A stretch of DNA of 64,000 nt, taken from positions 1,934-65,933 of the IMG/VR virus record IMGVR_UViG_3300021288_000002; one strand, 5' to 3'. The DNA is from a virus. Taxonomy: Duplodnaviria > Caudoviricetes. This document shows, piece by piece, positions 1,719-32,773 of this stretch. The translations under genes and the position numbers were made by a program. Positions within the stretch are counted from its first letter, which is position 1, and each line of letters begins with the position of its first letter. The notes below the pieces were generated by a model. The model did not search any database. It saw nothing but the letters and a program-made list of their open reading frames with translations, and was not told the origin of the DNA.

Positions 1719-1900
1719 TTTCTCATCTCTTTTTCAGTTAATGTTCGACCTGCACATAACCCTAAGAATAGGAATGAAAAACATGTAACCATAATCTGGA
1801 ACACATTCCTCTCCAATCTCCAATCAATGAACAAAGAACAAATAAATAATATGGTCATAATCGCTAGGATTAACCATACTATTTTAAAGAAAGTATTCAT
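1715..1900 (-). CDS. small membrane protein (2 TM)
   Basis: Two hydrophobic stretches; coupled to neighbours. Confidence 0.55.
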   Translation of the reverse strand: MNTFFKIVWLILAIMTILFICSLFIDWRLERNVFQIMVTCFSFLFLGLCAGRTLTEKEMRK

Positions 1901-2262
1901 CCTTTTACACGCTCCTTGTAGATATGATTATTCCGTGTATGTGGAATGCGAGTAATCCCTAACCTATGGCAGATATTGTCCACTTGGTCTTGTTTCCAAC
2001 CGGTGCGGATTAACTCATCACGTACCCTTTGAGCATCCTGTAAAGTAGCATACCTACCATAATAATAAGTGATCCAATTAATTTTCTTTTTAATATAGAA
2101 TCCACTTGGTTTTTCCTCAATGTGTTTTCGTTCGCTATCTGGGTTGATAGTTTCAGGATAATTGCTTTTGAATAAAGTTGTGAGGTTAGTACCATGCTTT
2201 ATTAGACATTCTTCTAACCCCATGCCGTTTCTTAAGTCTTCAGTTATTTCTATTGGTATCAT
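1897..2262 (-). CDS. AP2-like DNA-binding domain protein
   Basis: FYIKKKINWITYYYGRYATLQDAQRVRD matches the AP2/integrase-like Y/FGxF/YxTxxEA pattern. Confidence 0.5.
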   Translation of the reverse strand: MIPIEITEDLRNGMGLEECLIKHGTNLTTLFKSNYPETINPDSERKHIEEKPSGFYIKKKINWITYYYGRYATLQDAQRVRDELIRTGWKQDQVDNICHRLGITRIPHTRNNHIYKERVKG

Positions 2263-2267
2263 CTCTT

Positions 2268-2753
2268 TTAGTCCTCGAATGTCCAGTCTTCACATTTCCC
2301 TGTTAAACTCACATTTTCTTCAAGATTATTGTAGTAGCCCTCATATTTATCATCAGGAATAGGTTCACAAGAACTACATGACTCGCAACATGGGACATTA
2401 GTTCTTGCACCTTCTAAATATAAAGGGTATTTAGTCATGTTGATTTGACCATAACTGCAGTCTCGGTGTTTGTCACAGAATGTTTGTGCTAATGTTTCAT
2501 CATCAACAAAAGCTACATGTTCCCAAGTTTCATCTAATCTTCTGCTGATTTCAAAAACTGGTGCTTTTTTAACTGTTTTTAGGTGTCTGTTCTCTGCTCT
2601 TAGTCTTCTGATTGTTTTAACATAGTTGTTCAGTTTATGTGATAAAGTGTTGGCCACGTCCTTTGATGGGCAGTAATATGATCTGTCATGAATACTGTCC
2701 ACTATGATGTAGTGGTGGTTATTCTCCAGTTCTGCCCAATATTCTCCGCTCAT
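2268..2753 (-). CDS. hypothetical protein, C-terminal Cys cluster
   Basis: ORF in operon; CCESCSSC...C. Confidence 0.55.
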   Translation of the reverse strand: MSGEYWAELENNHHYIIVDSIHDRSYYCPSKDVANTLSHKLNNYVKTIRRLRAENRHLKTVKKAPVFEISRRLDETWEHVAFVDDETLAQTFCDKHRDCSYGQINMTKYPLYLEGARTNVPCCESCSSCEPIPDDKYEGYYNNLEENVSLTGKCEDWTFED

Positions 2754-3283
2754 TTTAATTCCTCTCCATATTTTGCTAGTGTTTTTTCTACTTCTTTTTG
2801 TGTTGTTAAACCAAAGTGTTTATTGTATTTTCCTTGTGTGTTGATGAAATGGTTTAATTCATTAAATCTGATGTCATATAACTCTTTAGGTAACCCATAA
2901 TAGGCGTCTCCCATTAATTGGGTTAATGTTTCTAGGGATTCCCTGAGTTTAGTGCTTGGGATATTGATATCATCATTATCACCAGATGCATCTCTGAATA
3001 TTTCCAGTTTATCTGGTAATGTCATTCCTGCAAATCCATGAACATGCAATAAATCAGCTGCCATTGAATCCGCATCATTCCAATTGAATTTACCTGCTTT
3101 AACATATTTTTCATAATTACTGGAATAACATAAATGTGAAATAAATTGGAATGGTTTCAGAATCAGATCACTACAATGATTACCCATACATTTGACAATC
3201 TTGTCATGTTTTAAACATTTCATATCACATTTATTCTTGTCTATAATTTCAGAATAAACACAATCATTACAACGATAAGTCAT
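2750..3283 (-). CDS. hypothetical protein, N-terminal Cys cluster
   Basis: ORF in operon; CNDC...C...C...C. Confidence 0.55.
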   Translation of the reverse strand: MTYRCNDCVYSEIIDKNKCDMKCLKHDKIVKCMGNHCSDLILKPFQFISHLCYSSNYEKYVKAGKFNWNDADSMAADLLHVHGFAGMTLPDKLEIFRDASGDNDDINIPSTKLRESLETLTQLMGDAYYGLPKELYDIRFNELNHFINTQGKYNKHFGLTTQKEVEKTLAKYGEELK

Positions 3284-3611
3284 TCAACTCACTTCCTGCA
3301 CATCCCTTTAAATTAAGCAAAATTGGATAAACCTTTTTACCCATATCAGTTAATTTATATAATCTACCTTTACGTGCTTCCTCATTAATACAAACAACAA
3401 GTTCTTTTTCTTTTAATTCACCTAAAACTTTACTAACATGATTTGGCCTAAATCCAGCATTCGCTGCAATGAATTTAGGAGTCATTGCGCCATTGTTAAA
3501 TAATACAGTCATTGTTCTCTCACGATAACTTGAGATTAAAACATATGCTGCTAAACTCATTAACTCATCACTTGAATTATAATTCTGATTCAAAAATTCT
3601 GTTTTATTCAT
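3267..3611 (-). CDS. winged-helix (MarR/ArsR-like) transcription regulator
   Basis: MTPKFIA...HVSKVLGELKEKELVVC...RGRLYKLTDMG wHTH pattern. Confidence 0.8.
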   Translation of the reverse strand: MNKTEFLNQNYNSSDELMSLAAYVLISSYRERTMTVLFNNGAMTPKFIAANAGFRPNHVSKVLGELKEKELVVCINEEARKGRLYKLTDMGKKVYPILLNLKGCAGSELNDLSL

Positions 3612-8188: not shown

Positions 8189-9937
8189 CTACTCCTTATC
8201 ATAATCCAACCAAAATGGTTTAAGAACATCATCACTCTGATTCAAAATGCTGCATTCCTCATCAATAATAACATCATTTAAAACAATATAATCCACAATA
8301 TCAGATGGATATTCATACTCTAAACGACGCTTACCAGAATCAGATAAAACCAGCATCTCATTCTGAGGAACCTCATCAACATGTTCTACCAAAGCATACA
8401 TGTTACTTTTACCATGTTTACCGACAACTTTCAAAAAACCTTCCTGATTTAACTCAGTGAAATAACGATATAATGATCTCTTAGCAATATTGACATTACC
8501 CTCTTCAATATAATCATTAATAGTAAATCCAAAATCTTCACCAGAATCAAACTTATAACTTGAATCTGCTTGATAAATCCATTCATGACTATTTTCAACA
8601 ATATCATCAAGTAATTCAGCTGCTTTCTTAGATAAATTCCTTGTAATACTAGCCATATACGGCCGGAGTAATGTAACAAAGTACTGTAAATCTTCAGGAC
8701 TAGTGAAAATAACTTTTTCACCATTAATCTCATGAATTTCACGATTAGCACTATTAAAAGCAGTAATAACTTTCAGTATCCCATTATATTTATCATAATC
8801 CCTTTTATAATATTCAGATGCACCAATCAAATTCAATATAGCATCAGAATAAGGATTAACAATATTAATATCACTAAATTTGTATCTTAAACCAAGAACC
8901 ATTTTTTGAATATCTGTTTTAAAACTAAGCATAGATTGATATATTTGTTCTGTTTTGCCTCCTTTTAACTCCAAATAAGATTTACGAGCATTAAACACTG
9001 CTCTATTATCAGTTCTAGGTGTGAAAATAAAACTACGAGATAACTCCTGACTATCAAAGTTATAATTTGGAACAGTAGTGTAAGTTAAACAAGGAAAACC
9101 TTTCAAGATTAGATCAACAACTTGGAATTCCCCATCCACTTTTATTGTAATGGGCCTTGCCAAGTAACCGTCAGTCTGTAACTCTTTCAGAAGATTTTTT
9201 GTATCTTCAACCTCATCTTGGTCACTATTACCTCCAAGGTCCCCATACACTACAATTTTACCATCATAATATCTTTGATTTTCTTCAGCACGACGGAACA
9301 TAGAAGCCATAGTAGGTTTCTTCTCATATCTAATGAAATCTTCAGGAATCATAGATAAAGCTACATTCTCAATATGAGTTTTCCCACTACTACCATCACC
9401 TAAACCAATAACACTAATTGGATTTTTTAGGATAACTTGACTACAATAACATAAGAAAGTAATCATGATGTTAGTTCTTTCACCAGCAGTATACCAGTCA
9501 ACTAATGATGCTGTATAAATCAAAGGTCTGTATTGCTTATTGAAGATTTCTAAACCTTCCTCATAAGCTTGTTTGTTCTGAGCTAACTCTTCTTGTTCAT
9601 TCTGTTTTTGAGTTTCAATTTCAACTTCAACATATTCATCAACAAAACTGTTCATTGCAACTTTCAGATCATCAAACAATTTGGTGACACCCAATTTGTT
9701 TAATGTTCCAGCAGGGTTTAAGTGTTTCTTGATTTCAACTCCAACAGTTGACCTTTCAGTTATGCTTAATGGTGTTTCACCTTTTAATTCATTGATTAAC
9801 TTCTTATCCTCATTAAAAAAGTCATATATACATCCTTTCTTAAAAGGAACTGGTTTAACTGTAAAACCATCAGCTAATTTAATCCCATAGTCAAGACTCC
9901 ATAATGATTCAACTTCAGGTGCAGCTCCTAATCCCAT
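8189..9937 (-). CDS. P-loop NTPase with C-terminal winged helix; probable replicative helicase/initiator
   Basis: Walker A GDGSSGKT, Walker B-like VVYGD, C-terminal wHTH (KRSLYRYFTELNQEGFL...Y); GGGGTG RBS. Confidence 0.65.
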   Translation of the reverse strand: MGLGAAPEVESLWSLDYGIKLADGFTVKPVPFKKGCIYDFFNEDKKLINELKGETPLSITERSTVGVEIKKHLNPAGTLNKLGVTKLFDDLKVAMNSFVDEYVEVEIETQKQNEQEELAQNKQAYEEGLEIFNKQYRPLIYTASLVDWYTAGERTNIMITFLCYCSQVILKNPISVIGLGDGSSGKTHIENVALSMIPEDFIRYEKKPTMASMFRRAEENQRYYDGKIVVYGDLGGNSDQDEVEDTKNLLKELQTDGYLARPITIKVDGEFQVVDLILKGFPCLTYTTVPNYNFDSQELSRSFIFTPRTDNRAVFNARKSYLELKGGKTEQIYQSMLSFKTDIQKMVLGLRYKFSDINIVNPYSDAILNLIGASEYYKRDYDKYNGILKVITAFNSANREIHEINGEKVIFTSPEDLQYFVTLLRPYMASITRNLSKKAAELLDDIVENSHEWIYQADSSYKFDSGEDFGFTINDYIEEGNVNIAKRSLYRYFTELNQEGFLKVVGKHGKSNMYALVEHVDEVPQNEMLVLSDSGKRRLEYEYPSDIVDYIVLNDVIIDEECSILNQSDDVLKPFWLDYDKE

Positions 9938-9986: not shown

Positions 9987-10565
9987 TTATTGAATGCTGG
10001 TGATTTTGAAAGTAGGATAATCACTATCCATAACTTCAACTTGCTCAATGCTAACTCTTTTACCTTCAATGAATTCTGCAACATTTTTCAAGTTAATTTT
10101 CTTAATAATGTTAATTTCATCACCGGTTTTAGGGTCAATGAGACTTTTAGGGTCAACAACCATCATAATACCAGTTACGAAATTCCAGCAGTTACGGTGG
10201 AAGTCAAATCTTTCATTTGGTTTTTGAATACGTGTACAAATACCATTGTCTGAAAATTTAGGACAGTTTAAGTAAATGTCTAAGAATTCTCCAACTTCAA
10301 CTTCATCATCAACCATTTTAGGTTCAGCATGTTCATCAATTAAACGTACTCTGATTTGACTGTAGTTTTTAACTACTTCTTTACCAGTGTTGTCTACTTT
10401 TTTGACTACTGGGAAAAATTCAACATCGGCTTCACCGCTGAATGATTGTCCTTCTACCATGTCAGATAAGTAGTAACGTTTGTAGTCTTCTAAGTTATTT
10501 TCTTCTGTTCCAGTTTCCATTCCAAATAATTTATTTAAATCAGTTTTTGCCATAAATTTCACCAT
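9987..10565 (-). CDS. hypothetical protein (possible ssDNA-binding protein)
   Basis: Acidic, beta-rich, lies between SSAP-like and helicase-like genes; function inferred from synteny only. Confidence 0.35.
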   Translation of the reverse strand: MVKFMAKTDLNKLFGMETGTEENNLEDYKRYYLSDMVEGQSFSGEADVEFFPVVKKVDNTGKEVVKNYSQIRVRLIDEHAEPKMVDDEVEVGEFLDIYLNCPKFSDNGICTRIQKPNERFDFHRNCWNFVTGIMMVVDPKSLIDPKTGDEINIIKKINLKNVAEFIEGKRVSIEQVEVMDSDYPTFKITSIQ

Positions 10566-10600
10566 TATTATTTTAATTAAAAAAAATTTAATAGGAGGAT

Positions 10601-11365
10601 TTAATGTCCTCCAGTCATGCTTTCAGGCATTTCTTCATAAGGTGTTGAAGAGTAGCCAGCTAATTCCATGATCCATGCAAGTGATAGTCTGAAGGCCTTT
10701 CCAGTTGCCCTTGTGATTGCCATACTATATACTGCATGCTCTTCTTTTTGCCTACCACTACTGGTTGCGATTGCTTGACCTTCACCAACTTTTACACCAC
10801 GACCATCGATTAACTCAACTTTGGCAAGGTAACCAAAACGGGCTTTAGTTGGGAATGGTTCCACACTTACAATTTCAACACGTATACCAATCATTGTTCC
10901 AAGAGTGGACCAACCACTAACAGTAACATAATCATTTTCACCAATACGCTGAATCAAATGTTGAGATTCAAGTACTGATTTTAATGCATCGGCTACACGA
11001 GTAGCAATAACCACACGGTTAGCTACACTAATCATTGGATTTAATACATCAGCATCAATCAATTGACTAGGCTGATTATTAACTTGCACTAATTCTCCAT
11101 TCTCATCAAGATTATTCTTTACATGTTCTTCAATGCTATCATCAATGACAGCTTCAAAGATTTCCTCATCAGAAGGATCATGTTCGGTGATTACTTCAAC
11201 TTTTGCCCCACCAGTCTCACTAAAATCAATTGTATCTTTATGCAATTGTTTTTCCTCTTTAACTTCTTCGACAATGATTTCATTGTCAGATTTTTCATCT
11301 ACAGTAAAATCACCCACATCTTCAAGGGTGTTTTGTATAGTTGTTGGTTCTTCTCCCATACCCAT
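10601..11365 (-). CDS. putative single-strand annealing/recombination protein with acidic N-terminus
   Basis: YVTVSGW...SMAITRATGKAFR...GYSSTPYEEM resembles Rad52/Erf-like phage annealases. Confidence 0.5.
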   Translation of the reverse strand: MGMGEEPTTIQNTLEDVGDFTVDEKSDNEIIVEEVKEEKQLHKDTIDFSETGGAKVEVITEHDPSDEEIFEAVIDDSIEEHVKNNLDENGELVQVNNQPSQLIDADVLNPMISVANRVVIATRVADALKSVLESQHLIQRIGENDYVTVSGWSTLGTMIGIRVEIVSVEPFPTKARFGYLAKVELIDGRGVKVGEGQAIATSSGRQKEEHAVYSMAITRATGKAFRLSLAWIMELAGYSSTPYEEMPESMTGGH

Positions 11366-11368
11366 GAT

Positions 11369-11713
11369 TTATTCCTCCATTAAAATTTCTTCTTCACGAA
11401 TCAAAGGAGTTTCAGACTCCAAGATTTGATAACAATAAAATTCAAGTACAATTCCTTGCGGTAACTCTTCCACATCATTAGGTAATCTTTTACCTTTGAG
11501 ATGAGCTACCAGCAATACATCATTTGGTCTTAAACTAATATGTTCAGGATTATATTCTACTCCAAGAATCTTTGCAAGATTCTCTTGATTGATGCAGGAA
11601 TGAGCGTCATAACATAAGAATTTAAATTCTTCTTCAGTTATTTTATGACAGCGCATATCCCATTCATTAATTGATACCATATTTGGGGACCATGAAGTTC
11701 CTATAAATTTCAT
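11369..11713 (-). CDS. DUF1874 (STIV B116 / AcrIII-1)-like protein, divergent active site
   Basis: SWSPNM ~ AFSxNM; KITEEEF; LGVEYN; DVLLVAHLKGKRLPNDVEELPQG ~ GDxxxVxQxxGxRLPEGxxxLPEG; GH replaced by NQ. Confidence 0.6.
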   Translation of the reverse strand: MKFIGTSWSPNMVSINEWDMRCHKITEEEFKFLCYDAHSCINQENLAKILGVEYNPEHISLRPNDVLLVAHLKGKRLPNDVEELPQGIVLEFYCYQILESETPLIREEEILMEE

Positions 11714-17083: not shown

Positions 17084-18463
17084 TTATTTTTCACTAATCT
17101 TTTCAAGAATACTATTACGAGTAATTGGTTTGTCATCTATCTCATCCAATCTTTTTTCAATGACATTCATACGAGATTCCATTTCCACAACTTCAGCGTC
17201 TTTTTCTTCGATTTGTTTTTCGAGCATGTTAATCTTTGCTTCCATCTCTCTGCGGACATCTGAAGTGTAAACTTTTACATCAGTATTTTCCAAACTTAAG
17301 TCAGGAATGGCAGCCATATATGCTTCTTTAATTTCCTTAACATCCAATCGAATGTAACTATCATCTGTTCTTAATGGGGATGTATGACCCTCAAGGATAG
17401 CACATATCCGAATGTTCCCACAATTCCGAGCGATTTGAGTGCTGAAGAATTTTCGGAGAGAATGAGCGTGAAATTTCGGTATTTTTTCAACTTCATTGTC
17501 AAAGTCCTCTTCCGCCAATTCACCATTGTTGATTTTCTCCTTGATGATGTTGATTCGATGTTCCCTCAACTTTTTGTTTTTCTTGTTGAAGAGATCGGAT
17601 ATGGTGTGTGTTGTTATCTGTCCTTTGAAATTTTTCCTCTGATTTCCAAACAATGCATCTTCTTTCGATAGTTCAAGTCCATATTGGGGCAGGTATTCGT
17701 TTTTGATTCTCCTTAAATTTTGCAAAATCAAGTTCGATGCCTCTCCATCTATAAATGTAATGCATTCTAAATCATATCTTTGGGTCTTGCTTGGATTAAA
17801 TTGCAATGTGCATATCATATCTGATGAGGCATTGTCAATGAATTCATTTACTGACACGAAATTATGATAATCTGATGTGCCTTTGATGAAGTCCCCAATG
17901 CTAAGGTCAAGAGCATCTTTGATTCTCAAACCGGATGCTCTCAAAGTGCTGATGAGGGATTGATGGGTCAATGTTGAATCTTGCATCACGAACCGAATGT
18001 CCTCTTTGGTGAGTGGATGCCATTGTTGTTTGTCTGCAGGTAACCTTTTCCAGTTAGGCAGCTCCACATGGTAATGTTGCAGGAAGATTGAAATCAAATC
18101 TAAGTTGTTGTTGATTGTGTTGTTACTGTTGCCTTTCTCCTTGCAATATTGAATGTGATTGTCGATGAATTGGCTAATGTATGAATCTGGTTTGTTGACA
18201 TCAAATTCAATGACTTCTTTTTCAATGATTTCCTCATTCTCATTATTGGTGGTTTTGATGATTTTTTCAATGACACGATTTTGTTCGGATTTGCAACGCT
18301 CAACTATCTCCGACAATTCAAGATCATTAGCAACTGAAAATTTCATCAATGCATATTTGTAATTTTCGTAACTTGCATCCGAGAGTGCAGGTCGGCTTCG
18401 GATGAAGTTGGTGAATAGTTTGTCTTCTGTTATGTGATAGTTTTTCATAGTAGAACCTCTCAA
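17084..18463 (-). CDS. tyrosine recombinase/integrase (canonical catalytic residues)
   Basis: SGLRIKD (R), SKT (K), HSLR (HxxR), LEGH, SY (Y). Confidence 0.9.
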   Translation of the reverse strand: MRGSTMKNYHITEDKLFTNFIRSRPALSDASYENYKYALMKFSVANDLELSEIVERCKSEQNRVIEKIIKTTNNENEEIIEKEVIEFDVNKPDSYISQFIDNHIQYCKEKGNSNNTINNNLDLISIFLQHYHVELPNWKRLPADKQQWHPLTKEDIRFVMQDSTLTHQSLISTLRASGLRIKDALDLSIGDFIKGTSDYHNFVSVNEFIDNASSDMICTLQFNPSKTQRYDLECITFIDGEASNLILQNLRRIKNEYLPQYGLELSKEDALFGNQRKNFKGQITTHTISDLFNKKNKKLREHRINIIKEKINNGELAEEDFDNEVEKIPKFHAHSLRKFFSTQIARNCGNIRICAILEGHTSPLRTDDSYIRLDVKEIKEAYMAAIPDLSLENTDVKVYTSDVRREMEAKINMLEKQIEEKDAEVVEMESRMNVIEKRLDEIDDKPITRNSILEKISEK

Positions 18464-19025: not shown

Positions 19026-20063
19026 ATGTATAATAGCAGACTATTCCAAAAATTCTGTAAAGACAGAAATGTCAAAAAAAGTACAAAGAAAGGTTATGAA
19101 TCCGCATTAAAAAATTATACAAAGTTTCATAACTTAACGATTGAAGAACTAATAAAAGAAGCCCAAAAAGAAGAACAAGAAAAAATAATATTAAAAGACA
19201 GACAAATCAAAACGAGATTATTGAAATACAGAACATACTTATTCAACAGCAACAAATCCCCAAACACCATCAAAACATATTTCACCAAAATCAAAACATT
19301 CTACCAACACCACGAAATCGAAATACCAAAAATACCAGACGCCAAATATGATAAATTATATGAAACTAACTATATGGACTTACCTACCAAAGACCATATC
19401 AGAAAAGTATTGGAAATTGTAACCGTAGACCTACGCAGCATAATTCTTTTCATGAGCTCAAGTGGAACAGCCAAAGCCGAAACTTTAAGCCTTACCATAG
19501 AATCATTCATCCTTGCTACTCAAGAATACCACAATGGAGGAAGCATTAAAGAAATACTAGACACATTAAGCAAAAAAGACAATATAATACCAACATTTTA
19601 TTTGAAACGGATAAAAACAGACAAATATTATTACACTTTCTGTTCACCTGAAGCAGCATCTGAAATAGTGAAATATTTACAAGTGAGAGATGATCTAAAA
19701 TTATCTGATAAATTATTTGACTTCACACCATCAACATTATTGACCAGGTTCCAGGAAATTAATGACCAGATGAACTGGGGATTCAAAGGTAACTACAGAT
19801 TCTTCAGAAGTCATACACTACGGAAATTTCATGCAAGTAATATAGGATTACCTGCTGAATACATTGACAGTCTGCAAGGCCGTAGTAAAAATGAAATACA
19901 CGAAACATATATTAAAACCAATCCTGAAAAGTTAAAGGAAATCTATAGAACAGCAATGCATAATGTAATGATATACAATAATGAAAAGAATGAAATTATT
20001 AATCAAGAATTTACAATAGTAATCAATGTATTTTTGAGCGGTAAGGAGTATAATATTTTTTAA
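19026..20063 (+). CDS. tyrosine recombinase, atypical active site; candidate invertase of the fibre shufflon
   Basis: SAM-like N-terminus; SGTAKAE (Arg-I position is Ala), RIKT, HTLR, LQGR, TY. Confidence 0.85.
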   Translation: MYNSRLFQKFCKDRNVKKSTKKGYESALKNYTKFHNLTIEELIKEAQKEEQEKIILKDRQIKTRLLKYRTYLFNSNKSPNTIKTYFTKIKTFYQHHEIEIPKIPDAKYDKLYETNYMDLPTKDHIRKVLEIVTVDLRSIILFMSSSGTAKAETLSLTIESFILATQEYHNGGSIKEILDTLSKKDNIIPTFYLKRIKTDKYYYTFCSPEAASEIVKYLQVRDDLKLSDKLFDFTPSTLLTRFQEINDQMNWGFKGNYRFFRSHTLRKFHASNIGLPAEYIDSLQGRSKNEIHETYIKTNPEKLKEIYRTAMHNVMIYNNEKNEIINQEFTIVINVFLSGKEYNIF

Positions 20064-20517: not shown

Positions 20518-21519
20518 TTACCCTCTTTTAACAACTAAAACAGATTTTTGACTAATTCCATTAATGTAACTTCTAAACTCTGAAGTTGATCTATCTTCAA
20601 CATATCCACAGTAACAAGAACCACATCCACTAGACCCTAAACTGTTTTGTACTTTCACATTACTACCAGAGACACTATTAACTACTTCATAATGTCCCCA
20701 TTTATTCCTGTAAAGATTATGAATGATACAATCTTTATCAGATGATTTAAGTATTTTATTTAGTTTAGTCCATCCAATGTCTGAGAAGTTATACCATTTG
20801 CAAGTTAATTTTACTCCAGTTTTTTTTGATGCTTTGGCAATTGCAGTTTCTAAACCTTGATGGTCAGTACCACTACTGGTGGTTCCTGCCCAGGAAGCTA
20901 ATGTTGATTGTTTAATAACTTTACCCGTAAGATTCCTGATAACCTCTTGCATACTGTGAGGACCACAATCTACTGAGTTATTTTGTCCTCTGTTGTCACA
21001 TCCACTTTTAGTTGCATGACCATATTTCTTATTAGTTGCCTTTTTTGTACTATTTGATGTAGATGTACTTGTTACTTTTTTAGTAACTTCACTGGTTTTA
21101 AATCCACATGTGTTAGGTAATCTTCCTTCTTCATCATAAAATACAATGATTTTACTGAATGAATAAATGAATACTCTTTGTTTGATTTTTTTACCGAAAC
21201 CTGAAAGATAATTAGGTAATCTTCTGTTCTCTTTTTTTGACATGAAATTACTTAATTTTTTAGCTAATGATTGATATGATGTTTTGGTTAATTTCAAATC
21301 AACGTTTTCACCTGTTGGGTTAGGTGCAAGATTACATTTGAGGGAGGTTACACTTTTACCTGGATTTTGAACTGCTTTACTGATTAAATATGCTGCATCT
21401 TGAATAGTGTATGTTTCATTATCAACAGTTACTTTTCCAGGAAGTTTAGTTTCTTTTTCAACATATGTTTTAATTTTCTTTGATATTTTTACAATAGTTT
21501 TAAATTTTATTTCTGTCAT
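20518..21519 (-). CDS. endolysin: pseudomurein-binding repeats + C39-like cysteine peptidase (PeiR-like)
   Basis: PMBR-like ...RRLPNY / GRLPN repeats; QNNSVDCGPHS...GHYEVV catalytic motifs. Confidence 0.8.
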   Translation of the reverse strand: MTEIKFKTIVKISKKIKTYVEKETKLPGKVTVDNETYTIQDAAYLISKAVQNPGKSVTSLKCNLAPNPTGENVDLKLTKTSYQSLAKKLSNFMSKKENRRLPNYLSGFGKKIKQRVFIYSFSKIIVFYDEEGRLPNTCGFKTSEVTKKVTSTSTSNSTKKATNKKYGHATKSGCDNRGQNNSVDCGPHSMQEVIRNLTGKVIKQSTLASWAGTTSSGTDHQGLETAIAKASKKTGVKLTCKWYNFSDIGWTKLNKILKSSDKDCIIHNLYRNKWGHYEVVNSVSGSNVKVQNSLGSSGCGSCYCGYVEDRSTSEFRSYINGISQKSVLVVKRG

Positions 21520-21563: not shown

Positions 21564-21887
21564 TATTCAACAAATAGTAATAGTATTCATATTAGAGGAA
21601 CTGGATTCAAAGAAGTGATAAATTCCAATCAATCTTACAAATATGATGATAAACTGGTGGATTTTTATATCCATTTTGGAAACAACGTAACAGCAACTAC
21701 TTCTTGGAAAGATTTTGGGAAAGTGATACCTCAACATATATTCCCAAAAAATACTATTCAATTTATGGAGCAATTTGGAGCAATAATTCTAAGAATTAAA
21801 TCTGATGGTATTCTACAATATAGAAGCATAACTGGAGGTAATGTTGATGCTTCAAGTCTTGTTGCCCATACCACTTGGATCATTTAA
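21564..21887 (+). other. silent tail-fibre tip cassette C1
   Basis: Begins at TATTCAACAAATA (YSTNSNSIHIRGTGFK); 324 nt in frame to stop; in-frame ATG at 21555. Confidence 0.85.
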
Positions 21888-21889
21888 TG

Positions 21890-22240
21890 TATTCAACAAA
21901 TACTTCCAGTATACAGATTAATGGGAAAGGGTGGAAAACCTATTATCATAAGTCTGCAAGTAATGGTTGGTATGTAACTGTCTTATATAATGAAACAACT
22001 GCCAAATGTATCGTTAATGACCCTGCAAATGTTTCATTCACTACAAGCGAAACAAATTATCTTACTGATTGTTTAACTGACTCTTGGATTACACCACAAG
22101 AACCAGTTGCAAATAATTTTACTTTTACAAGGAGATTGATAATTAGACCGAGTTCTGCAACAATTTACAAACAAGGAACTGCGAGTGGGACTGGAACTAT
22201 TTATACTCAATTCAGTTGGGAACACAGAGGCCTCCCTTAA
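21890..22240 (+). other. silent tail-fibre tip cassette C2
   Basis: TATTCAACAAATA (YSTNTSSIQINGKGWK); 351 nt; 2 nt after the C1 stop. Confidence 0.85.
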
Positions 22241-22242
22241 AT

Positions 22243-22596
22243 TATTCAACAAATAATACCAATATTCAAATTAAAGTAAGTGGGTTGAAATTAATTAAAG
22301 ATACTTCCCAATGGAGCGATGTAACTTATGAACTCTATGTGGATGAATCCACTCATAGTGCAACACTCAAAATGGGTATAGCAAATAAAAACATTGCTCC
22401 TGGAATGAGCAATTACGAAATGACTGGTTGGATACCATCAGATTACCGACCAAAATCAAACAAGTACAGTCAAGGTTATCGTGGAAACAATAACCTATTC
22501 TATGTTTGGGGTAATGGAAATATCGGTGTATCCAATCTTACATCATCAACACAGACTGGGGCGTATCTTTCTTGTCAGATTGACTGGAATTATTAA
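22243..22596 (+). other. silent tail-fibre tip cassette C3
   Basis: TATTCAACAAATA (YSTNNTNIQIKVSGLK); 354 nt; closest to the expressed tip (VTYxLYVDESTH, IPxxYRPK). Confidence 0.9.
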
Positions 22597-22601
22597 ATAC
22601 G

Positions 22602-22943
22602 TATTCAACAAAGACCCACAACACATCTATAAACGTTACTGGTTGGAAAAGAGTAGTGAATCAAGCTGATGGGAAAATACAAGTATACTGTGATGGTGAA
22701 ACTTGTCAATTTAGCTGCCAAGGAACCCAAACCATCCGTGCAAATGGAACAACTACTTTAGGCACAATTCCCTCACAGTACAGTCCTCAATATATTATAA
22801 CTATCCCAGTTCATTTTCAAGCAAATAATATATTATGCAGGATTACAGAAACTGGAGTGGTGGAAGTTCATAATAATTCCAGTGCCACAAACGTCCTGAT
22901 GAGAGTACTAGTAACTTATTCCTTGAAAAGTAAAATAATCTAA
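22602..22943 (+). other. silent tail-fibre tip cassette C4
   Basis: TATTCAACAAAGA (YSTKTHNTSINVTGWK), in frame with ORF 22656-22943; 342 nt. Confidence 0.85.
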
Positions 22944-22962
22944 TTAAGAGAGGAGTAAATTA

Positions 22963-23310
22963 TTAAATCGCAAATTCCACTGTTCCATATAATGTTATGC
23001 CCCCACTACTTGAATAGGTAGTACGAGATATGATGAGTTTAATTGAACCATCAGTACTAATCCGTATAAACCCATAATGCCCTCCATTATCTCCTATACT
23101 GGAAGTGGGGACCGCCACTATATTTTGTGGCCTATAATTACTATTAAGTGTACCTAATTCATATTCTGTCCCCACGTTTCCACTATTACTTTGTTGATTG
23201 CAACGAACAGAAACCATTCGTCCATTTGATTTTGCAGTAAATCTAGCAGTGGTTTGAACTGTTTTCCATCCTCCCACCTTAATTTGCATATTGGTACTAT
23301 TTGTTGAATA
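22963..23310 (-). other. silent tail-fibre tip cassette C5
   Basis: TATTCAACAAATA on the minus strand at 23310-23298 (YSTNSTNMQIKVGGWK); 348 nt; 6 nt after the fibre stop. Confidence 0.85.
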
Positions 23311-23316
23311 TATGAG

Positions 23317-24198
23317 TTAATAATGCCATTCGTGAATGAAATTGAATGAGTAATTTGTTACTGTGTTCCCTAAATTTGTTATTCCAATCTTCCCATCATT
23401 ATTCACATAATTTAAGAACTGGTTATTTCTCATAATCTCAGCAATAGAAGTATTCTTTGGTCGGTACTTTGTAGGTATGACAAAATCAGAATAAATAAAA
23501 CTATGTCCGGATACGATAGTTACACCAGTTCTAACTGCTCTTATTTGTGCAGTATGGGTGGATTCATCAACATACAAAGCATATGTAACATTTGATTGGA
23601 TTAATTTAAATCCATCTACTTTGATTTGGAGATTATTGTTATTTGTTGAAAACATGACTAAACCCCATGTGTCTGCGGTATAAGTCAATGAAAAAGTACC
23701 ATTAACACCAGTTGTTCCAGACCGCCAGACTTCATTATCTTTCAGGACAGGAACATTAACCCCCACTACAGGGTTACCCTGTTGGTTAGTAACTTTAACA
23801 GTAATGGTAACATCTGTATCTATATCCACATTATATTTACTTGCAGTAATTTGGTAATTGTATAAATCAGTAATCTGATTTTTCGTATGATTATGGCTCA
23901 ATGGTGCATAATTAGATAATTGACTAACCTTTGCAAAATCAGATGATAAGAATCCTGATAAAGTTGTTGCATTAATTGGAGTGTTTTCATTAGTATTTGC
24001 CAGTATTGCTTGTAATCTTGCTTCTGTGAAGTATGTTTCATCAATTACTGCTAATTGTGCTTGCATTTCCTCTAATGTTTCCGCATCTGCTACACTAATG
24101 TTTCCTATTTTATTTCCACTGTCACTGTATACGGTTATTTCTGCTCCGATGATTTTACCGTCATCTTCACTGAATATTCTTGTATTAAAATCAACCAT
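23317..24198 (-). CDS. tail fibre / receptor-binding protein with exchangeable C-terminal tip (expressed cassette C0 = 23317-23652)
   Basis: Fibre-like SHNH motif, Ig-like segment, then FSTNNNNLQIKVDGFK encoded over TTTTCAACAAATA (23652-23640). Confidence 0.85.
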   Translation of the reverse strand: MVDFNTRIFSEDDGKIIGAEITVYSDSGNKIGNISVADAETLEEMQAQLAVIDETYFTEARLQAILANTNENTPINATTLSGFLSSDFAKVSQLSNYAPLSHNHTKNQITDLYNYQITASKYNVDIDTDVTITVKVTNQQGNPVVGVNVPVLKDNEVWRSGTTGVNGTFSLTYTADTWGLVMFSTNNNNLQIKVDGFKLIQSNVTYALYVDESTHTAQIRAVRTGVTIVSGHSFIYSDFVIPTKYRPKNTSIAEIMRNNQFLNYVNNDGKIGITNLGNTVTNYSFNFIHEWHY

Positions 24199-27741: not shown

Positions 27742-28398
27742 ATTTATAAGTATGAATATTTCTTTGGAGAGGGTGTTGGTGACTTATATATAAAAGCTAT
27801 ATGTGGGTTATCAGCAGTAACATACAGTATTGAAGACTGTTTAAGATATGATAATGCTTCATCAGACAATACTTCTAAATACAGTAGTGTGAATTTGAAC
27901 AGTTTAAGTTGGGATACAGACCATTATGTCGCTACTCGTAGTTTAACTGGTAGTTCTGCAAGTACATATTACAGTCAAATCTATATTGAAGAAGATTTAC
28001 CCTCTGATTATGAAATTAGCATGGATATATGGGCAAGTAATGTAGCAGATATTCAAAGTGGTATCTGTATCAGTAATGCTCACCCACAGACTTATTCAGG
28101 CACTAATCAAGCGATGTTAGTGTATCAAGGGCAACAGAAAGGTTTATTGTATCGTGTGAATGGTAGTTTGTCAAGATGGGATAATACCCCAGCGATTGCA
28201 AGAGAAACTTGGTTCACATTTACTTTAAGAGTTCAAGGAACAAGTGTAATTGCCATAATCACCGACACCAATAACGATGAAGTGTATTCCACCACACAAA
28301 CACTTTCAAGTATTAGTTCTTGGCATAAGTGGAATATCCAGTTAGGGAACAAAGCACACTACTTACATTGGAAAAACTTCAAAATCAAAGCATTATAA
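27742..28398 (+). other. start-less alternative C-terminal (lectin-like) cassette for the large fibre/adhesin
   Basis: Open frame extends upstream of 27889 without ATG: GEGVGDLYI...SIEDCLRYDNASS...LSWDTDHY aligns to GKGTGNLYI...SVADCVRYDSASS...MSWSTDHY of 28393-31620; stop codons overlap. Confidence 0.75.
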
Positions 28399-31300
28399 TC
28401 GTTTGACTTTAATCTGTTTGATTTGTATACTCACATTCCAAGAACTCATTAATCTTGCTTTTGTGAAATTAGCGACTGTTTGAGTCCAATTTCCAAAAAC
28501 AGTACCATCTAATGTTTCAATTGTTCCAGTATAAGTTGAATCATTTTTAATAAGGGTATACTTATACCATTGATTGTTAGTCAATGTTGTAGAATTTCTG
28601 TTGGAATTATATCCTCCACCATTGTTAAATATAACTCCAGTTCCACTTGACACTCCATACAATCCAATTAAATGAGTATCATCATTACAAATACTTAATC
28701 CCATATTACGATTTGATGCGTTGATTAAAGCACTAAATTCAAAATCATCTGAACCTATTTCGGCAAAATCAATGAATCTCTTGCTTTGAGAAGTGGAACT
28801 GATATTATAATGGTCTGTACTCCAAGACATACTTAATCCACTCGGCATAGTATAATCACTAACCCTATTACTGCTTGCACTATCATACCGTACACAATCA
28901 GCAACGGATATTTCTGATACAATTATACGATCACTAGAAAAAGATTGAATATATAAATTCCCCGTACCTTTTCCTAAGTAAGATACAGTAGCCACACCAG
29001 AACTATTAGTATCTGCAGTTAAAGTTTCAACCAATGAATCATCACCGGTTTTACGAACCTCAAATGTGACAGTTTCCCCTGCAATTGCTACAGGGGTTGT
29101 TCCTGACATTAATTGAGCTGTAAGTGTTGCAGATTCCTCATCATATGCTGAGAGAATATCCTTGTCAGAGGTCAATTCTATTGCATCAAAGCTTGGAGCA
29201 TCTGAGACAGTTACAGTTACATTACCACTAGTTACTCCAGTATATGTGGTTGTTGCATCAAAGACCACATGATATGTGAATGTGCCTTCAGCAGTTGAGG
29301 TTATTGTCTTGCTGAATGTACCATCATTAGCAGTTGTTATAGTGTCAATTACAGATTGGCCTTGATATAATTTTACAGAGGCATTCGCTACACCTGTTCC
29401 ATTATAGAGTAATGCTCCTGATAATATATAGGAATCTCCTGTAATGACACTTGATTTACTTGTAAGTAAACTGATTGTTGGAGTTCTTTTAGTGATTGTA
29501 ACATTCACATTACTTGATGTTGCTGATTCATAAGTTGCATTCCCATTATAAACTGCGTGGAATGATTTTGATTCAACAGTTTCCGCAGTTATGGTTTTAC
29601 TGAATGTACCATTGGAAAGTGTTGTTACTGTATCGAGTAATGTTTCCCCATCGTAGATTTCAATACTTGCGGAACCAATATTGGTGCTAGCTTGTTTTAA
29701 GGTACCTGTTAATGTGATTGTTTCACCAAGTACATAACTTGCCTTGTTGGATGAGAATGTGATTGTAACTGGTTTTTTGTTAACAGTTATGTTCACATTG
29801 GCCATACTGCTGCGGTAATCTTCGTCTCCGTCGAATACTGCTCTGATGGTTACATTGCCACTTGTTTCTACGGTTACATTTTTGCTGAATGTTCCGTTGT
29901 TTAGTGTTGTCACTGTATCTACCAATTCATTATTAACATAAATTTTTATACTTTTACCTGATAATGTGGTTTCTTCATCGTCAGTTAATAATCCAGTTAT
30001 CTGTACTGTTTCACCAATAGTGTAAACGGATTTATCAGTGTTTAATGTGAGATATGTGAGTGTTTTGTTTGCTCCTTCACTTATCACTACATATAATGGA
30101 TTATTGTTTTTATTGTTGTTGATCCAGTTATGGTTTGTTATGATTTCACTACTGGTATCATGAGTTAATGTTAAATCCTGTAAGTTTAATCTTTGATTCT
30201 GTGCGATTTTAAAGAATTTGTAATTTGTAGTATTTTCAATTATAGCATTACCACATCCAAGTACTGTAGAAGATGTATTAACTGACAAAGGATTGTTAAT
30301 AGTGTATGTTCCACTTGTCAAGACGATTAGGTTTTGTTCCCCATTAACCATAGTTAATGCTTTGTTGATTGTTCGGAATGGAGTGTTGATTGTTGTTCCA
30401 TCATTGGTATCATCTCCTGTTGATGGGTTTACATACCAATCTGCACTGTTACATCCTCTAACTGTAACGGTTAATTCTTCAGTTGCAAAAAGGTCTTGTC
30501 CGATATATGCTTCGAATCTGAAGATGTTTGGTTCATCATCACTGATTAAATCACTTGTTACTGTGTAAGTACTGCTTGTATAATCAGTGGTTAATGGTGT
30601 TTCTGCATCGTTTAGGTATATTGTTACATTATAATCTCCAGTTAGTTTTTCAGCCAGCATGTTCAGGTATTGGAAATTGAATATTACTGATTGGTTTTTT
30701 ACTGGTAATAATGTGTTTGCAGATACGAAGAAGAATCTTCCTAGGTCTGGTGTTAAGTTACATAATTTGTCTTTATGTTCCCATGGCATGGGAGTCCAGT
30801 CACCGACAAGGCCTGTTTCTTCATCATATGGATGCATTGTTTCATCAAACATCTTGAGCAGGTATTCTTCTCTGTTTATCATGTCGCTGAAGATGCCGTA
30901 TATTTTCCATATTTCCAGGACAGGCAATGGAGTGTCATGCACTCTAAGAACATAATTGATGATACGATTCATGTAATGATAATCATCTTCAGTTAACCTG
31001 TTATTGTATGTAGGTTCAGTGTTGGCATAGTCTTCTGTTGGGATGTATGTTTTTCTTGGTATGCCGTTTAATGCTCCGATTTCATCCAAGCTAGTGTCAT
31101 GGTCATAAATGTCACCTGTTAGTTCATCGTTTTCGGGAAATCCTTTTTTGATTATGATTTCATCATATGATTCTGCGATTATGTGAAATGTGTCTTCGGG
31201 TATGATAGGAATTTCAATTTCACTATCATCTCCTTGATTTTCCTCCTCATTATCTTCACTATTATCATCCACAATCGTATTATCTTCACTGCTATCATAA

Positions 31301-31620
31301 GAATAAATAAAAGAACTGACATTATCCTCTTCCAAGTATTCTTCCATGTAGATTAATGTATCATTTTTATAACATTTCACACTTTTCAACTGAGGATAAT
31401 TCACAACAAAATTAATAACATAATCATAAGGCACACTCTGCTCCTTCCAAATACAACAACGCTTCCTTAATCTAAAACTATCAGAAACATCACTAATACT
31501 TTGAAAAATCCCCTTAAAAACATTATTAGTAACACTCTGAGATTTAAAGAAATTACTTGTCTCCGACTTATCAAAAAAATGAGGAAACATCTTGATTAAA
31601 CTTTGCATACTATTTTTCAT
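28393..31620 (-). CDS. baseplate-anchored adhesin/tail fibre: baseplate-like N-terminus, beta-helix-start motif, ~4 Ig-like repeats, ConA/LamG-like tip
   Basis: WYVNPSTGDDTNDG..PFRTINKAL; repeated ~95-aa Ig-like units (K.SY..GET..LTG.L...TVTT..NGTFS...AV..G...Y). Confidence 0.75.
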   Translation of the reverse strand: MKNSMQSLIKMFPHFFDKSETSNFFKSQSVTNNVFKGIFQSISDVSDSFRLRKRCCIWKEQSVPYDYVINFVVNYPQLKSVKCYKNDTLIYMEEYLEEDNVSSFIYSYDSSEDNTIVDDNSEDNEEENQGDDSEIEIPIIPEDTFHIIAESYDEIIIKKGFPENDELTGDIYDHDTSLDEIGALNGIPRKTYIPTEDYANTEPTYNNRLTEDDYHYMNRIINYVLRVHDTPLPVLEIWKIYGIFSDMINREEYLLKMFDETMHPYDEETGLVGDWTPMPWEHKDKLCNLTPDLGRFFFVSANTLLPVKNQSVIFNFQYLNMLAEKLTGDYNVTIYLNDAETPLTTDYTSSTYTVTSDLISDDEPNIFRFEAYIGQDLFATEELTVTVRGCNSADWYVNPSTGDDTNDGTTINTPFRTINKALTMVNGEQNLIVLTSGTYTINNPLSVNTSSTVLGCGNAIIENTTNYKFFKIAQNQRLNLQDLTLTHDTSSEIITNHNWINNNKNNNPLYVVISEGANKTLTYLTLNTDKSVYTIGETVQITGLLTDDEETTLSGKSIKIYVNNELVDTVTTLNNGTFSKNVTVETSGNVTIRAVFDGDEDYRSSMANVNITVNKKPVTITFSSNKASYVLGETITLTGTLKQASTNIGSASIEIYDGETLLDTVTTLSNGTFSKTITAETVESKSFHAVYNGNATYESATSSNVNVTITKRTPTISLLTSKSSVITGDSYILSGALLYNGTGVANASVKLYQGQSVIDTITTANDGTFSKTITSTAEGTFTYHVVFDATTTYTGVTSGNVTVTVSDAPSFDAIELTSDKDILSAYDEESATLTAQLMSGTTPVAIAGETVTFEVRKTGDDSLVETLTADTNSSGVATVSYLGKGTGNLYIQSFSSDRIIVSEISVADCVRYDSASSNRVSDYTMPSGLSMSWSTDHYNISSTSQSKRFIDFAEIGSDDFEFSALINASNRNMGLSICNDDTHLIGLYGVSSGTGVIFNNGGGYNSNRNSTTLTNNQWYKYTLIKNDSTYTGTIETLDGTVFGNWTQTVANFTKARLMSSWNVSIQIKQIKVKRL

Positions 31621-31621
31621 A

Positions 31622-32773
31622 TTAGATCATCTCAATTGTAATATCATTACTAACCCCAATTTCCTCATCAAGAATAGTTATATAATTCAATGGATAATTG
31701 AAAGTGATATTTTTTAATTCTGGAATCTCATCATCTAAAAACACAGCCAATTTATGTGGAATAAAATCCTCACCAAGTAATAATCCTGGATAATAAGTAT
31801 CATCAGTAGTATATCCACCATCAATAAACACTTTAATACTTGATATGATTCTTGCTTTAATTTTCTCTTTCTCTACATCACTATAAGGATTTAACTGGTC
31901 AATATCAACATTAACCACCGCATAAATATCAATAAGTTTCCTTACTGGTGCAAACATTGTAATATCTTCTTTCATTTGAGCAACTTTACCCTGCAAATCA
32001 TTATAAGCACGCAGTAATTGTTCCGGAGTACCCGGATCAAGAATTACTTTTATTGTCCCAGTACCATTCCAACAAGGAACAATCTTATACGAATCAATAC
32101 CGTCAAAAGATGCAAAATATTCCTCATAAGCCTCAGTAGAACCCTTCAAGTTAATTTCTTTCCAATGCATTAACAGATACCTGTATTCATCATCAGTATA
32201 CTCTTCAGTACCACCAGTACTTGCATTATCATTATTACATGACAAATTAACTTCCAATTCAGTTTCAATATTAACCAAAGTATTTTCAACAATCTTACTA
32301 GTCACACCAGCTTCAACGGCCATGCATGAAACAGTAGTACTGGTTTCACCTGCAGGAATGAAAATATTCTCCAACGTACGATATTCAATACCAGTATCAG
32401 TTGACAAAAACACTTCAGGACTAATATTAACATCCTCATCAAGAGCAACATCCAAAGTAAAAGTAACATCAACATAAGCATAAGTAGCTTCAGGCCTAGG
32501 AATACCTACCACATCACCAATATTCTCATCCAAATCATCATTCTCTGCATACTCAACTTTTGCAGATTCATAAACCGGAGTTATCGCTTCTTGATAAATT
32601 CGTTCACCAAATAATGCAAGAACAGACTTATCCATCACATAATAATTACTAATATCTTCCTGATTCTCAATATAAGAAGGAAACTCTTCAGCATGACTTA
32701 TCAATCCTTTTTCAAGACTGTCCTGCAACACTTCTTCAAAAAGCTCAGCATAATCTTTTTCAACATAATTCAT
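31622..32773 (-). CDS. baseplate J-like protein
   Basis: D...DVVGIPR..AT.A...VTF...GGTEEYTDDEYR...GS...YEEY...GT..V. Confidence 0.85.
   Translation of the reverse strand: MNYVEKDYAELFEEVLQDSLEKGLISHAEEFPSYIENQEDISNYYVMDKSVLALFGERIYQEAITPVYESAKVEYAENDDLDENIGDVVGIPRPEATYAYVDVTFTLDVALDEDVNISPEVFLSTDTGIEYRTLENIFIPAGETSTTVSCMAVEAGVTSKIVENTLVNIETELEVNLSCNNDNASTGGTEEYTDDEYRYLLMHWKEINLKGSTEAYEEYFASFDGIDSYKIVPCWNGTGTIKVILDPGTPEQLLRAYNDLQGKVAQMKEDITMFAPVRKLIDIYAVVNVDIDQLNPYSDVEKEKIKARIISSIKVFIDGGYTTDDTYYPGLLLGEDFIPHKLAVFLDDEIPELKNITFNYPLNYITILDEEIGVSNDITIEMI

Follow-up and report, generated by a model that had tools for sequence, protein, structure and literature searches.

The fibre gene and the frame opposed to it

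The window analysed here is a 64,000-nucleotide (64-kb) stretch of DNA that makes up nearly all of the 65.9-kb IMG/VR virus record IMGVR_UViG_3300021288_000002, which has ~32% G+C and is estimated to be 74% complete. Its subject is a tail-fibre gene whose C-terminal tip is met, on the opposite strand, by a second tip-coding frame that lacks a start, a pair that may form an invertible module. The minus strand of the window carries a baseplate module of the contractile-tail type, with a Baseplate_J gene (31622-32773), a sheath-initiator-like gene and others, and the 1075-amino-acid (aa) gene at 28393-31620 lies directly downstream of Baseplate_J. Because of this position, and of the immunoglobulin (Ig)-like Big_3_5 repeats in its product, the gene is read as a tail fibre. 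A pseudomurein-binding C39 peptidase encoded at 20518-21519 points to a host in the Methanobacteriales, and related fibres are held by rumen and gut assemblies of Methanobrevibacter and Methanosphaera; the window virus is a Methanobrevibacter myovirus. The features of the locus are listed below.

28393-31620, minus strand: tail-fibre gene, 1075 aa, with an N-terminal baseplate-proximal part, Ig-like Big_3_5 repeats (E 1.7e-18) and C-terminal tip A
28982-31620, minus strand: fibre residues 1 to ~880, the constant part, which lies beyond the putative switchable module
28949-28981, minus strand: junction site 1 of the stalk, encoding YLGKGTGNLYI, one of two matches to a 33-nucleotide (nt) motif
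28906-28920, minus strand: junction site 2 of the stalk, GTATCAGAAATATCC, encoding VSEIS, a breakpoint of module replacement
28396-28905, minus strand: body of tip A, expressed, predicted ConA-like lectin jelly roll
28393-28398, both strands: stop codons of the two convergent frames, overlapping as TTATAA in the middle of the tail-to-tail module
27841-28395, plus strand: body of tip B, silent, predicted ConA-like lectin jelly roll
27808-27825, plus strand: silent-cassette copy of junction site 2, TTATCAGCAGTAACATAC, where module replacement has its other breakpoint, with only TATCAG in common with the stalk copy
27759-27791, plus strand: junction site 1 of the silent cassette, encoding FFGEGVGDLYI, the other match to the 33-nt motif
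27742-28398, plus strand: silent, start-less cassette frame of 218 codons, comprising outer head, linker and tip B

Homologues of the fibre (n=389) are typically conserved over ~85% of their length and divergent beyond, a pattern that also holds among close homologues. For instance, P0124 is 100% identical to the window fibre over residues 1-903 and bears another tip, and the same is seen in other clusters drawn at 90%. The opposed frame at 27742-28398 is homologous to the C-terminal end of the fibre. Its alignment covers residues 881-1075 (26% identity, E 2e-13), or about the last 195 residues, in agreement with an earlier, sequence-only reading of the locus that had matched it to the last ~190. 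The alignment begins at GEGVGDLYI in the frame and GKGTGNLYI in the fibre, continues through DC(L/V)RYD.ASS and SW.TDHY, and finishes at a common K.K.L end. The same reading had described the frame as having no ATG; there are in fact ATGs at codons 94 and 125, but the frame is start-less in the sense that matters here, as no ATG, GTG or TTG precedes the GTG at 27889 (codon 50), leaving the first 49 codons free of starts. The overlap of the two stop codons as TTATAA was likewise correctly seen, although the frames meet tail-to-tail and not head-to-head.

A tip-B-type domain is the expressed C-terminus of P0024, P0081, P0003 and P0004, the first of which is a homologous fibre of 1070 aa (46% identity). 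A megablast of the locus against the phage database gave no match, and a tblastn-based scan of the viral contigs with tip B found none. The lectin-like character that had been expected of both tips is borne out at the level of predicted fold. The AlphaFold model of tip B (predicted local distance difference test, pLDDT, 83; predicted template-modelling score, pTM, 0.81) is a beta jelly roll whose fold matches include legume lectins, GH16 and CBM66, and that of tip A (pLDDT 82, pTM 0.80) is a beta jelly roll with CBM66 and other lectin-like jelly rolls among its matches. In the PDB, both models come closest, at template-modelling (TM) scores of ~0.55-0.63, to legume lectins, GH16 glucanases, CBM66 and further modules of the ConA-like kind.

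Junction sites and a natural inversion in a sister virus

The boundary of homology between frame and fibre is marked by the octamer TTATATAT, which is found at 27784-27791 and, as its complement, at 28949-28956, in the same codon phase and encoding Leu-Tyr-Ile in both places. As had been proposed, no longer exact match in register exists between the two, and 27/40 positions agree around it. The octamer lies inside a 33-nt motif, TTNCTTNGGANANGGTNNNGGNGANTTATATAT, that is conserved in the stalks and silent cassettes of four viruses; the motif is present exactly twice in the window, in inverted orientation (27759-27791 on the plus strand and 28949-28981 on the minus strand), and 0 times in 100 shuffles, its consensus having been built in part from these two sites. 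This is site 1. A further site, site 2, lies ~15 codons past it, at SE(I/T)Y, such that the window holds two tiers of junction sites and not one. In addition, two expressed fibres, P0007 and P0008, include the outer head of the silent frame, GEGVGDLYIKAICGL, in the correct reading frame.

The neighbouring six-cassette system of the window (21564-23652) uses another motif, TATTCAACAAATA, and the suggestion that the fibre sites are unrelated to it stands, as TATTCAACAAATA is absent from them at up to 2 mismatches. That system is collinear between the window and its relative L020, with no rearrangement seen in the lineage, and the figure of 12 virion types, reached by multiplying the two systems, is arithmetic and not evidence.

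Relatives carry silent tips downstream of the fibre gene, and the two junction sites recur in them. There is one silent tip in L006 and one in L020, three in L007, and five each in L005 and the contig of P0005. The tips of these relatives alternate in orientation as tail-to-tail pairs, and all are open and end in K.K.L with overlapping TTATAA stops, the overlap being found in all three tail-to-tail pairs of L005. The peptide encoded by site 1 is (Y/F).G.G.GDL.I, and conservation extends to the DNA of the site in the stalks and the minus-oriented cassettes of four viruses. The outermost head, YKYEYF.G.GVGDLYIKA.CGL, occupies the same place in four viruses, adjoining an 87-aa gene. In the case of L005, site 1 of the stalk and of the fourth cassette form an inverted repeat of 35 nt at 97% identity (8622-8656 and 10822-10856). 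The similarity of its two arms far exceeds that of the coding sequence around them, which suggests either recent exchange or constraint on the DNA itself. Among fibres built on a single stalk (at least 97% identical), linkers and tips occur in combinatorial sets, as two tiers of sites would predict. Membership of the window module in a family of invertible fibre tips is well supported.

Direct evidence of inversion comes from the sister virus L005. The junction predicted between the L005 stalk and its silent cassette C2 was found once in the JGI metagenome contigs, on L032, from a sister sample. Positions 1-865 of L032 match L005 7836-8700, positions 843-1875 match L005 9710-8678 in inverted orientation at 100%, and positions 1853-3529 match L005 9688-11364. 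The two contigs differ by a clean reciprocal inversion of 1.03 kb at the stalk/tip boundary, at site 2, and L032 has the junction on either side. The crossover lies inside an identical core of 15 bp, TATTTTCCGAAATAT, that has the dyad form ATATTT-TCCG-AAATAT, and the position of site 2 in the window stalk is homologous to it. The flipped state is also present in an independent ENA assembly, as the 1088-aa protein P0173, the stalk of which is identical to the L005 fibre at 897/900 residues and the tip of which is the silent C2 cassette of L005 (99.5%), with the offsets of the downstream genes unchanged. An assembly artefact is unlikely, because a 15-bp repeat is far below the k-mers used by assemblers and because the two states come from different samples. 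Inversion at the stalk/tip boundary is real in nature for this sister virus.

Other pairs of relatives do not qualify as clean inversions. L026 and L027 have the same stalk and no cassettes in common, and between L019 and both L040 and L041, which also have the same stalks, the cassettes are replaced or only 76-85% alike.

The two-tip module as a probable switch, and other explanations

We consider it probable, with considerable room for doubt, that the two-tip module is a symmetrical silent/expressed invertible switch on the fibre of the window virus. In such a switch, the constant part of the fibre, residues 1 to ~880, would be transcribed with the baseplate genes and would end in a short linker bounded by site 1 (G.G.GDLYI) and site 2 (SE(I/T)Y), with the same two sites, inverted, ahead of the start-less tip B. 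If the two members of such an inverted pair recombined conservatively, a module of ~1.1-1.2 kb would flip. Stalk residues 1-891 would then be joined in frame to the final 201 residues encoded by the silent frame, for a predicted fibre of 1092 aa, and tip A would be parked as the silent copy. The flip would thereby change the receptor specificity of the virion, tips A and B presumably binding different receptors. The earlier proposal that inversion would exchange the tip on an Ig-repeat stalk is therefore upheld in part: the alternative tip is silent, its in-frame fusion is predicted, and the sister virus inverts at the same boundary; no inverted copy of the window virus has been seen, and its only recorded change is replacement of the whole module, at site 2.

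This replacement is found in L020 and L021, which are 99.99% identical to the window from 39620 to 28908 and 99.8% identical from 27840 to 20333. Between these flanks, the intervening ~1.06 kb is another tail-to-tail pair, with a tip C that is expressed and a tip D that is silent. Once mismatches at the ends are allowed for, the breakpoints fall at ~27813 and ~28911, both at the TATCA(G) of site 2 (the replaced module being window 27814-28910 against L020 10714-11771), and the replacement looks like cassette exchange between two inverted sites. Conversely, the tip A/tip B pair itself turns up, at ~99% identity, in the short contigs L023-L025, where it is joined to another stalk; in two of these, L024 and L025, the neighbouring flank differs as well. 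Whole modules are thus exchanged between viruses at the junction. The expressed tip A shows a pattern of its own, in that all 10-11 nt differences between the window and L023, L024 and L025 fall in tip A (28396-28905) and every one is nonsynonymous, with 0 differences in the tip B body; the 10.7-kb flank held in common with L020 has one. Three of the same tip A changes recur in P0125, on the window's own stalk. The confinement of nonsynonymous changes to tip A suggests diversifying selection on the expressed tip.

Several observations weigh against a switch that operates in the window virus. Tip B is silent in 6/6 of the assemblies that hold it (the window, its 100% identical copy L022, and four more contigs) and no inverted copy is among them, a small number of assemblies that give only the majority orientation. 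A protein joining the stalk to tip B is absent from the protein collection, and exact scans did not find the predicted stalk-to-tip-B junction in the viral contigs or in the JGI metagenome contigs. The control, the parental junction, was also absent from the viral contigs, for which reason the junction scans say little and cannot count against inversion. The site pairs of the window are the weakest in the family, with exact matches of 8 nt (site 1) and 6 nt (site 2), against repeats of 11-28 nt in relatives and the proven crossover core of 15 nt. Finally, no recombinase is tied to the sites; the candidates are tyrosine recombinases, and recombination by short homology may also act.

In an alternative account, the module belongs to the invertible family and its sites have drifted until flipping no longer occurs, leaving tip B a passenger that is expressed when recombination with co-infecting viruses or proviruses replaces or donates two-tip modules at the conserved junction. 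The near-identical flanks of L020 and L021 around tips C and D, with both breakpoints at TATCA(G), are what this account expects, as are the travels of the tip A/tip B pair, the absence of common cassettes in L026 and L027, the shortness of the window repeats, and the lack of a flipped state. Set against it, tip B shows no damage at all and its site 1 agrees with the family motif at every position, the assemblies are few and report the majority orientation only, and the recombinase may need only an 8-bp core, tyrosine recombinases requiring 6-8 bp of overlap identity. We regard such an archive as rather unlikely, though a serious contender. The virus may still flip, though with an identical core of only 8 nt it probably does so seldom, and the chance that flipping is under way at present may be put at about even to moderate.

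Two further explanations deny tip B any part in the fibre, and neither fits the locus. A decaying, functionless paralogue left by an old duplication or recombination would account for the mere 26% identity to tip A and for the weak repeats, but a run of 218 open codons has a chance of ~2e-7 at this composition (it is the third-longest open plus-strand frame in the window), the body of tip B (codons 26-218) is identical in all sister contigs, and tip B of close relatives has no stops or frameshifts. Moreover, the proportion of nonsynonymous differences from P0003 is well below that of synonymous ones (pN/pS 0.20/0.59), the predicted fold is confident, and the layout is conserved in many viruses with every cassette open. 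For these reasons a pseudogene was rejected as very improbable. Translation of tip B as a stand-alone 169-aa lectin-like protein from the GTG at 27889, for instance an accessory tail protein, has in its favour that the open reading frame is listed by gene callers. The conserved domain starts upstream of that codon, however, since similarity to two full-length proteins, P0003 (69% identity) and P0004 (43%), sets in at residue 11 of the frame, 40 residues ahead of the GTG. That GTG has no Shine-Dalgarno-like sequence before it, and the homologues whose context is known are, without exception, C-termini of long fibres or inverted cassettes that lack a start. A stand-alone gene was rejected on these grounds, and is scarcely credible.

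More speculatively, and on balance doubtfully, the junction sites may do double duty, serving both to flip the module within a genome and to swap modules between co-infecting viruses with unrelated stalks, in the manner of recombinase-mediated cassette exchange. The tips would then be a mobile receptor-binding pool shared across Methanobrevibacter viruses, and the reaction would be carried out by a conserved viral tyrosine-recombinase paralogue in which Lys replaces the box I Arg.

Methane in the rumen and the human gut is produced mainly by Methanobrevibacter, of which, to our knowledge, very few viruses have been studied. If the invertible switch is real, a heritable and reversible choice between two lectin-like tips would be a device for host range or phase variation, the flip probably changing which cells the virus can attach to, and tip choice together with the exchange of modules between viruses would explain how such viruses track variable cell-wall glycans. 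L005 and L032 provide a concrete, sequence-defined crossover site, and the window supplies the module in a minimal, two-state form.

Candidate recombinases and known switches

Flipping is presumably carried out by a tyrosine recombinase, and two such genes lie in the window.

19026-20063, plus strand: 345-aa tyrosine-recombinase paralogue, the first candidate for the invertase, its link to the switch being presumptive
17084-18463, minus strand: canonical tyrosine integrase of 459 aa (Phage_integrase, E 2.4e-7), an alternative candidate that is less conserved among relatives

The 345-aa protein has orthologues, 91, 85, 69 and 50% identical, in all 4 of the related records that are at least 79% complete, and is much better conserved among relatives (50-91%) than the 459-aa integrase. 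The whole of it can be aligned with that integrase, and HxLRKF, GR and the Tyr are retained. Lys occupies the position of the box I Arg, the sequence of this box being GTAKAE here and GCARKE in paralogues from other viruses. Only weak SAM-like matches were obtained in Pfam and no match among PDB sequences, and some relatives have two or three copies of the gene.

The 65.9-kb record, at its estimated 74% completeness, has no match to PF00239 at E of 1 or below, and hence no recognisable serine recombinase, and no match to PF00078, the reverse transcriptase family. A diversity-generating retroelement was rejected on the latter result and because the substitutions in tip A are not confined to adenines, a template repeat not having been searched for separately. 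Likeness of the junction sites to the host dif site, as in a possible switch driven by host XerA, was assessed in five Methanobrevibacter genomes with two dyad patterns guessed in place of the real dif sequence, which gave matches at background level only; one match common to Methanobrevibacter genomes lay within a conserved gene.

Switches of this general kind are already known, in the G segment of phage Mu (Gin), the C segment of P1 (Cin), the shufflons, and the haloarchaeal viruses phiCh1 and phiH1. In Mu and P1, the constant N-terminal part of the fibre lies outside the invertible segment and two alternative C-terminal, receptor-binding parts converge inside it, with inversion fusing one or the other in frame and changing the host range. 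The window has the same arrangement of a constant N-terminal part outside the segment and opposed C-terminal parts, the spare one lacking a start. The Mu and P1 systems employ a serine invertase encoded beside the segment, 34-bp repeats, and a Fis-dependent enhancer, whereas the record of the window virus has no serine recombinase of the Gin/Cin/Hin/Min type. The 33-nt pair in the window is in phase, but only 8 nt are identical and 27/40 positions agree; in this family the core of identity spans 8-15 bp, the sites come in two tiers, and the host is an archaeon.

The archaeal myovirus phiCh1/phiH1 offers another parallel. Of its two inverted fibre genes only one is coupled to a start, and inversion by the tyrosine recombinase Int1 switches the fibre protein (PMC6210493; Rossler et al. 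2004 as cited in PMC8371274). The recombinase gene of that system lies between the two fibre genes, and exchange takes place in clusters of short repeats within them. The general likeness rests on both accounts (PMC6210493, PMC8371274). The window virus likewise encodes tyrosine recombinases (17084-18463 and 19026-20063), whose role in the switch is a candidate one. Here, however, the tips abut, there is no cluster of repeats, and the candidate recombinase is 7.7 kb away; because the stops overlap at 28393-28398, no gene lies between the tips.

The larger arrays of L005, L007 and the contig of P0005 resemble the shufflon of R64/IncI (Rci) and Min of p15B, in that they hold several segments that short sites could flip singly or in groups, and a set of alternative C-termini on one constant protein, with a tyrosine recombinase the likely enzyme, as is Rci. 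The window differs in having a single module, where these relatives have 3 or 5 silent cassettes. Moreover, there are two classes of site at fixed positions of a protein linker and not one sfx family, no Rci orthologue was identified, and the target is a virion fibre and not a pilus adhesin. In the papers searched, switching of such a kind is described for haloarchaeal viruses and none was found for methanogen viruses, which a 2023 compendium of methanogen viruses might describe; the paper on MSTV1 makes no mention of inversion.

A few additional properties of the family may be recorded. Every tip ends in K(N/D).K(I/V)K.L and a stop, with the convergent stops overlapping as TTATAA, as in the pairs at 28372-28419 of the window and at 9103-9143, 10253-10300 and 11383-11423 of L005. 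Because of these shared ends and the overlap of the stops, the centre of each module is an imperfect palindrome of ~25-40 nt. In the lineage of P0184 (L027 10051-12511), an N6/N4 DNA methyltransferase and small genes lie between the cassette array and the conserved 87-aa gene. Lastly, L003 encodes (at 10001-11524) an Ig-repeat protein of 507 aa that ends in a tip-B-type domain (69% identity), and the gene for this protein lies just after a tape-measure-like gene. As L003 is a virus with a non-contractile tail (Phage_tube_2), the tip module moves between virus morphotypes.

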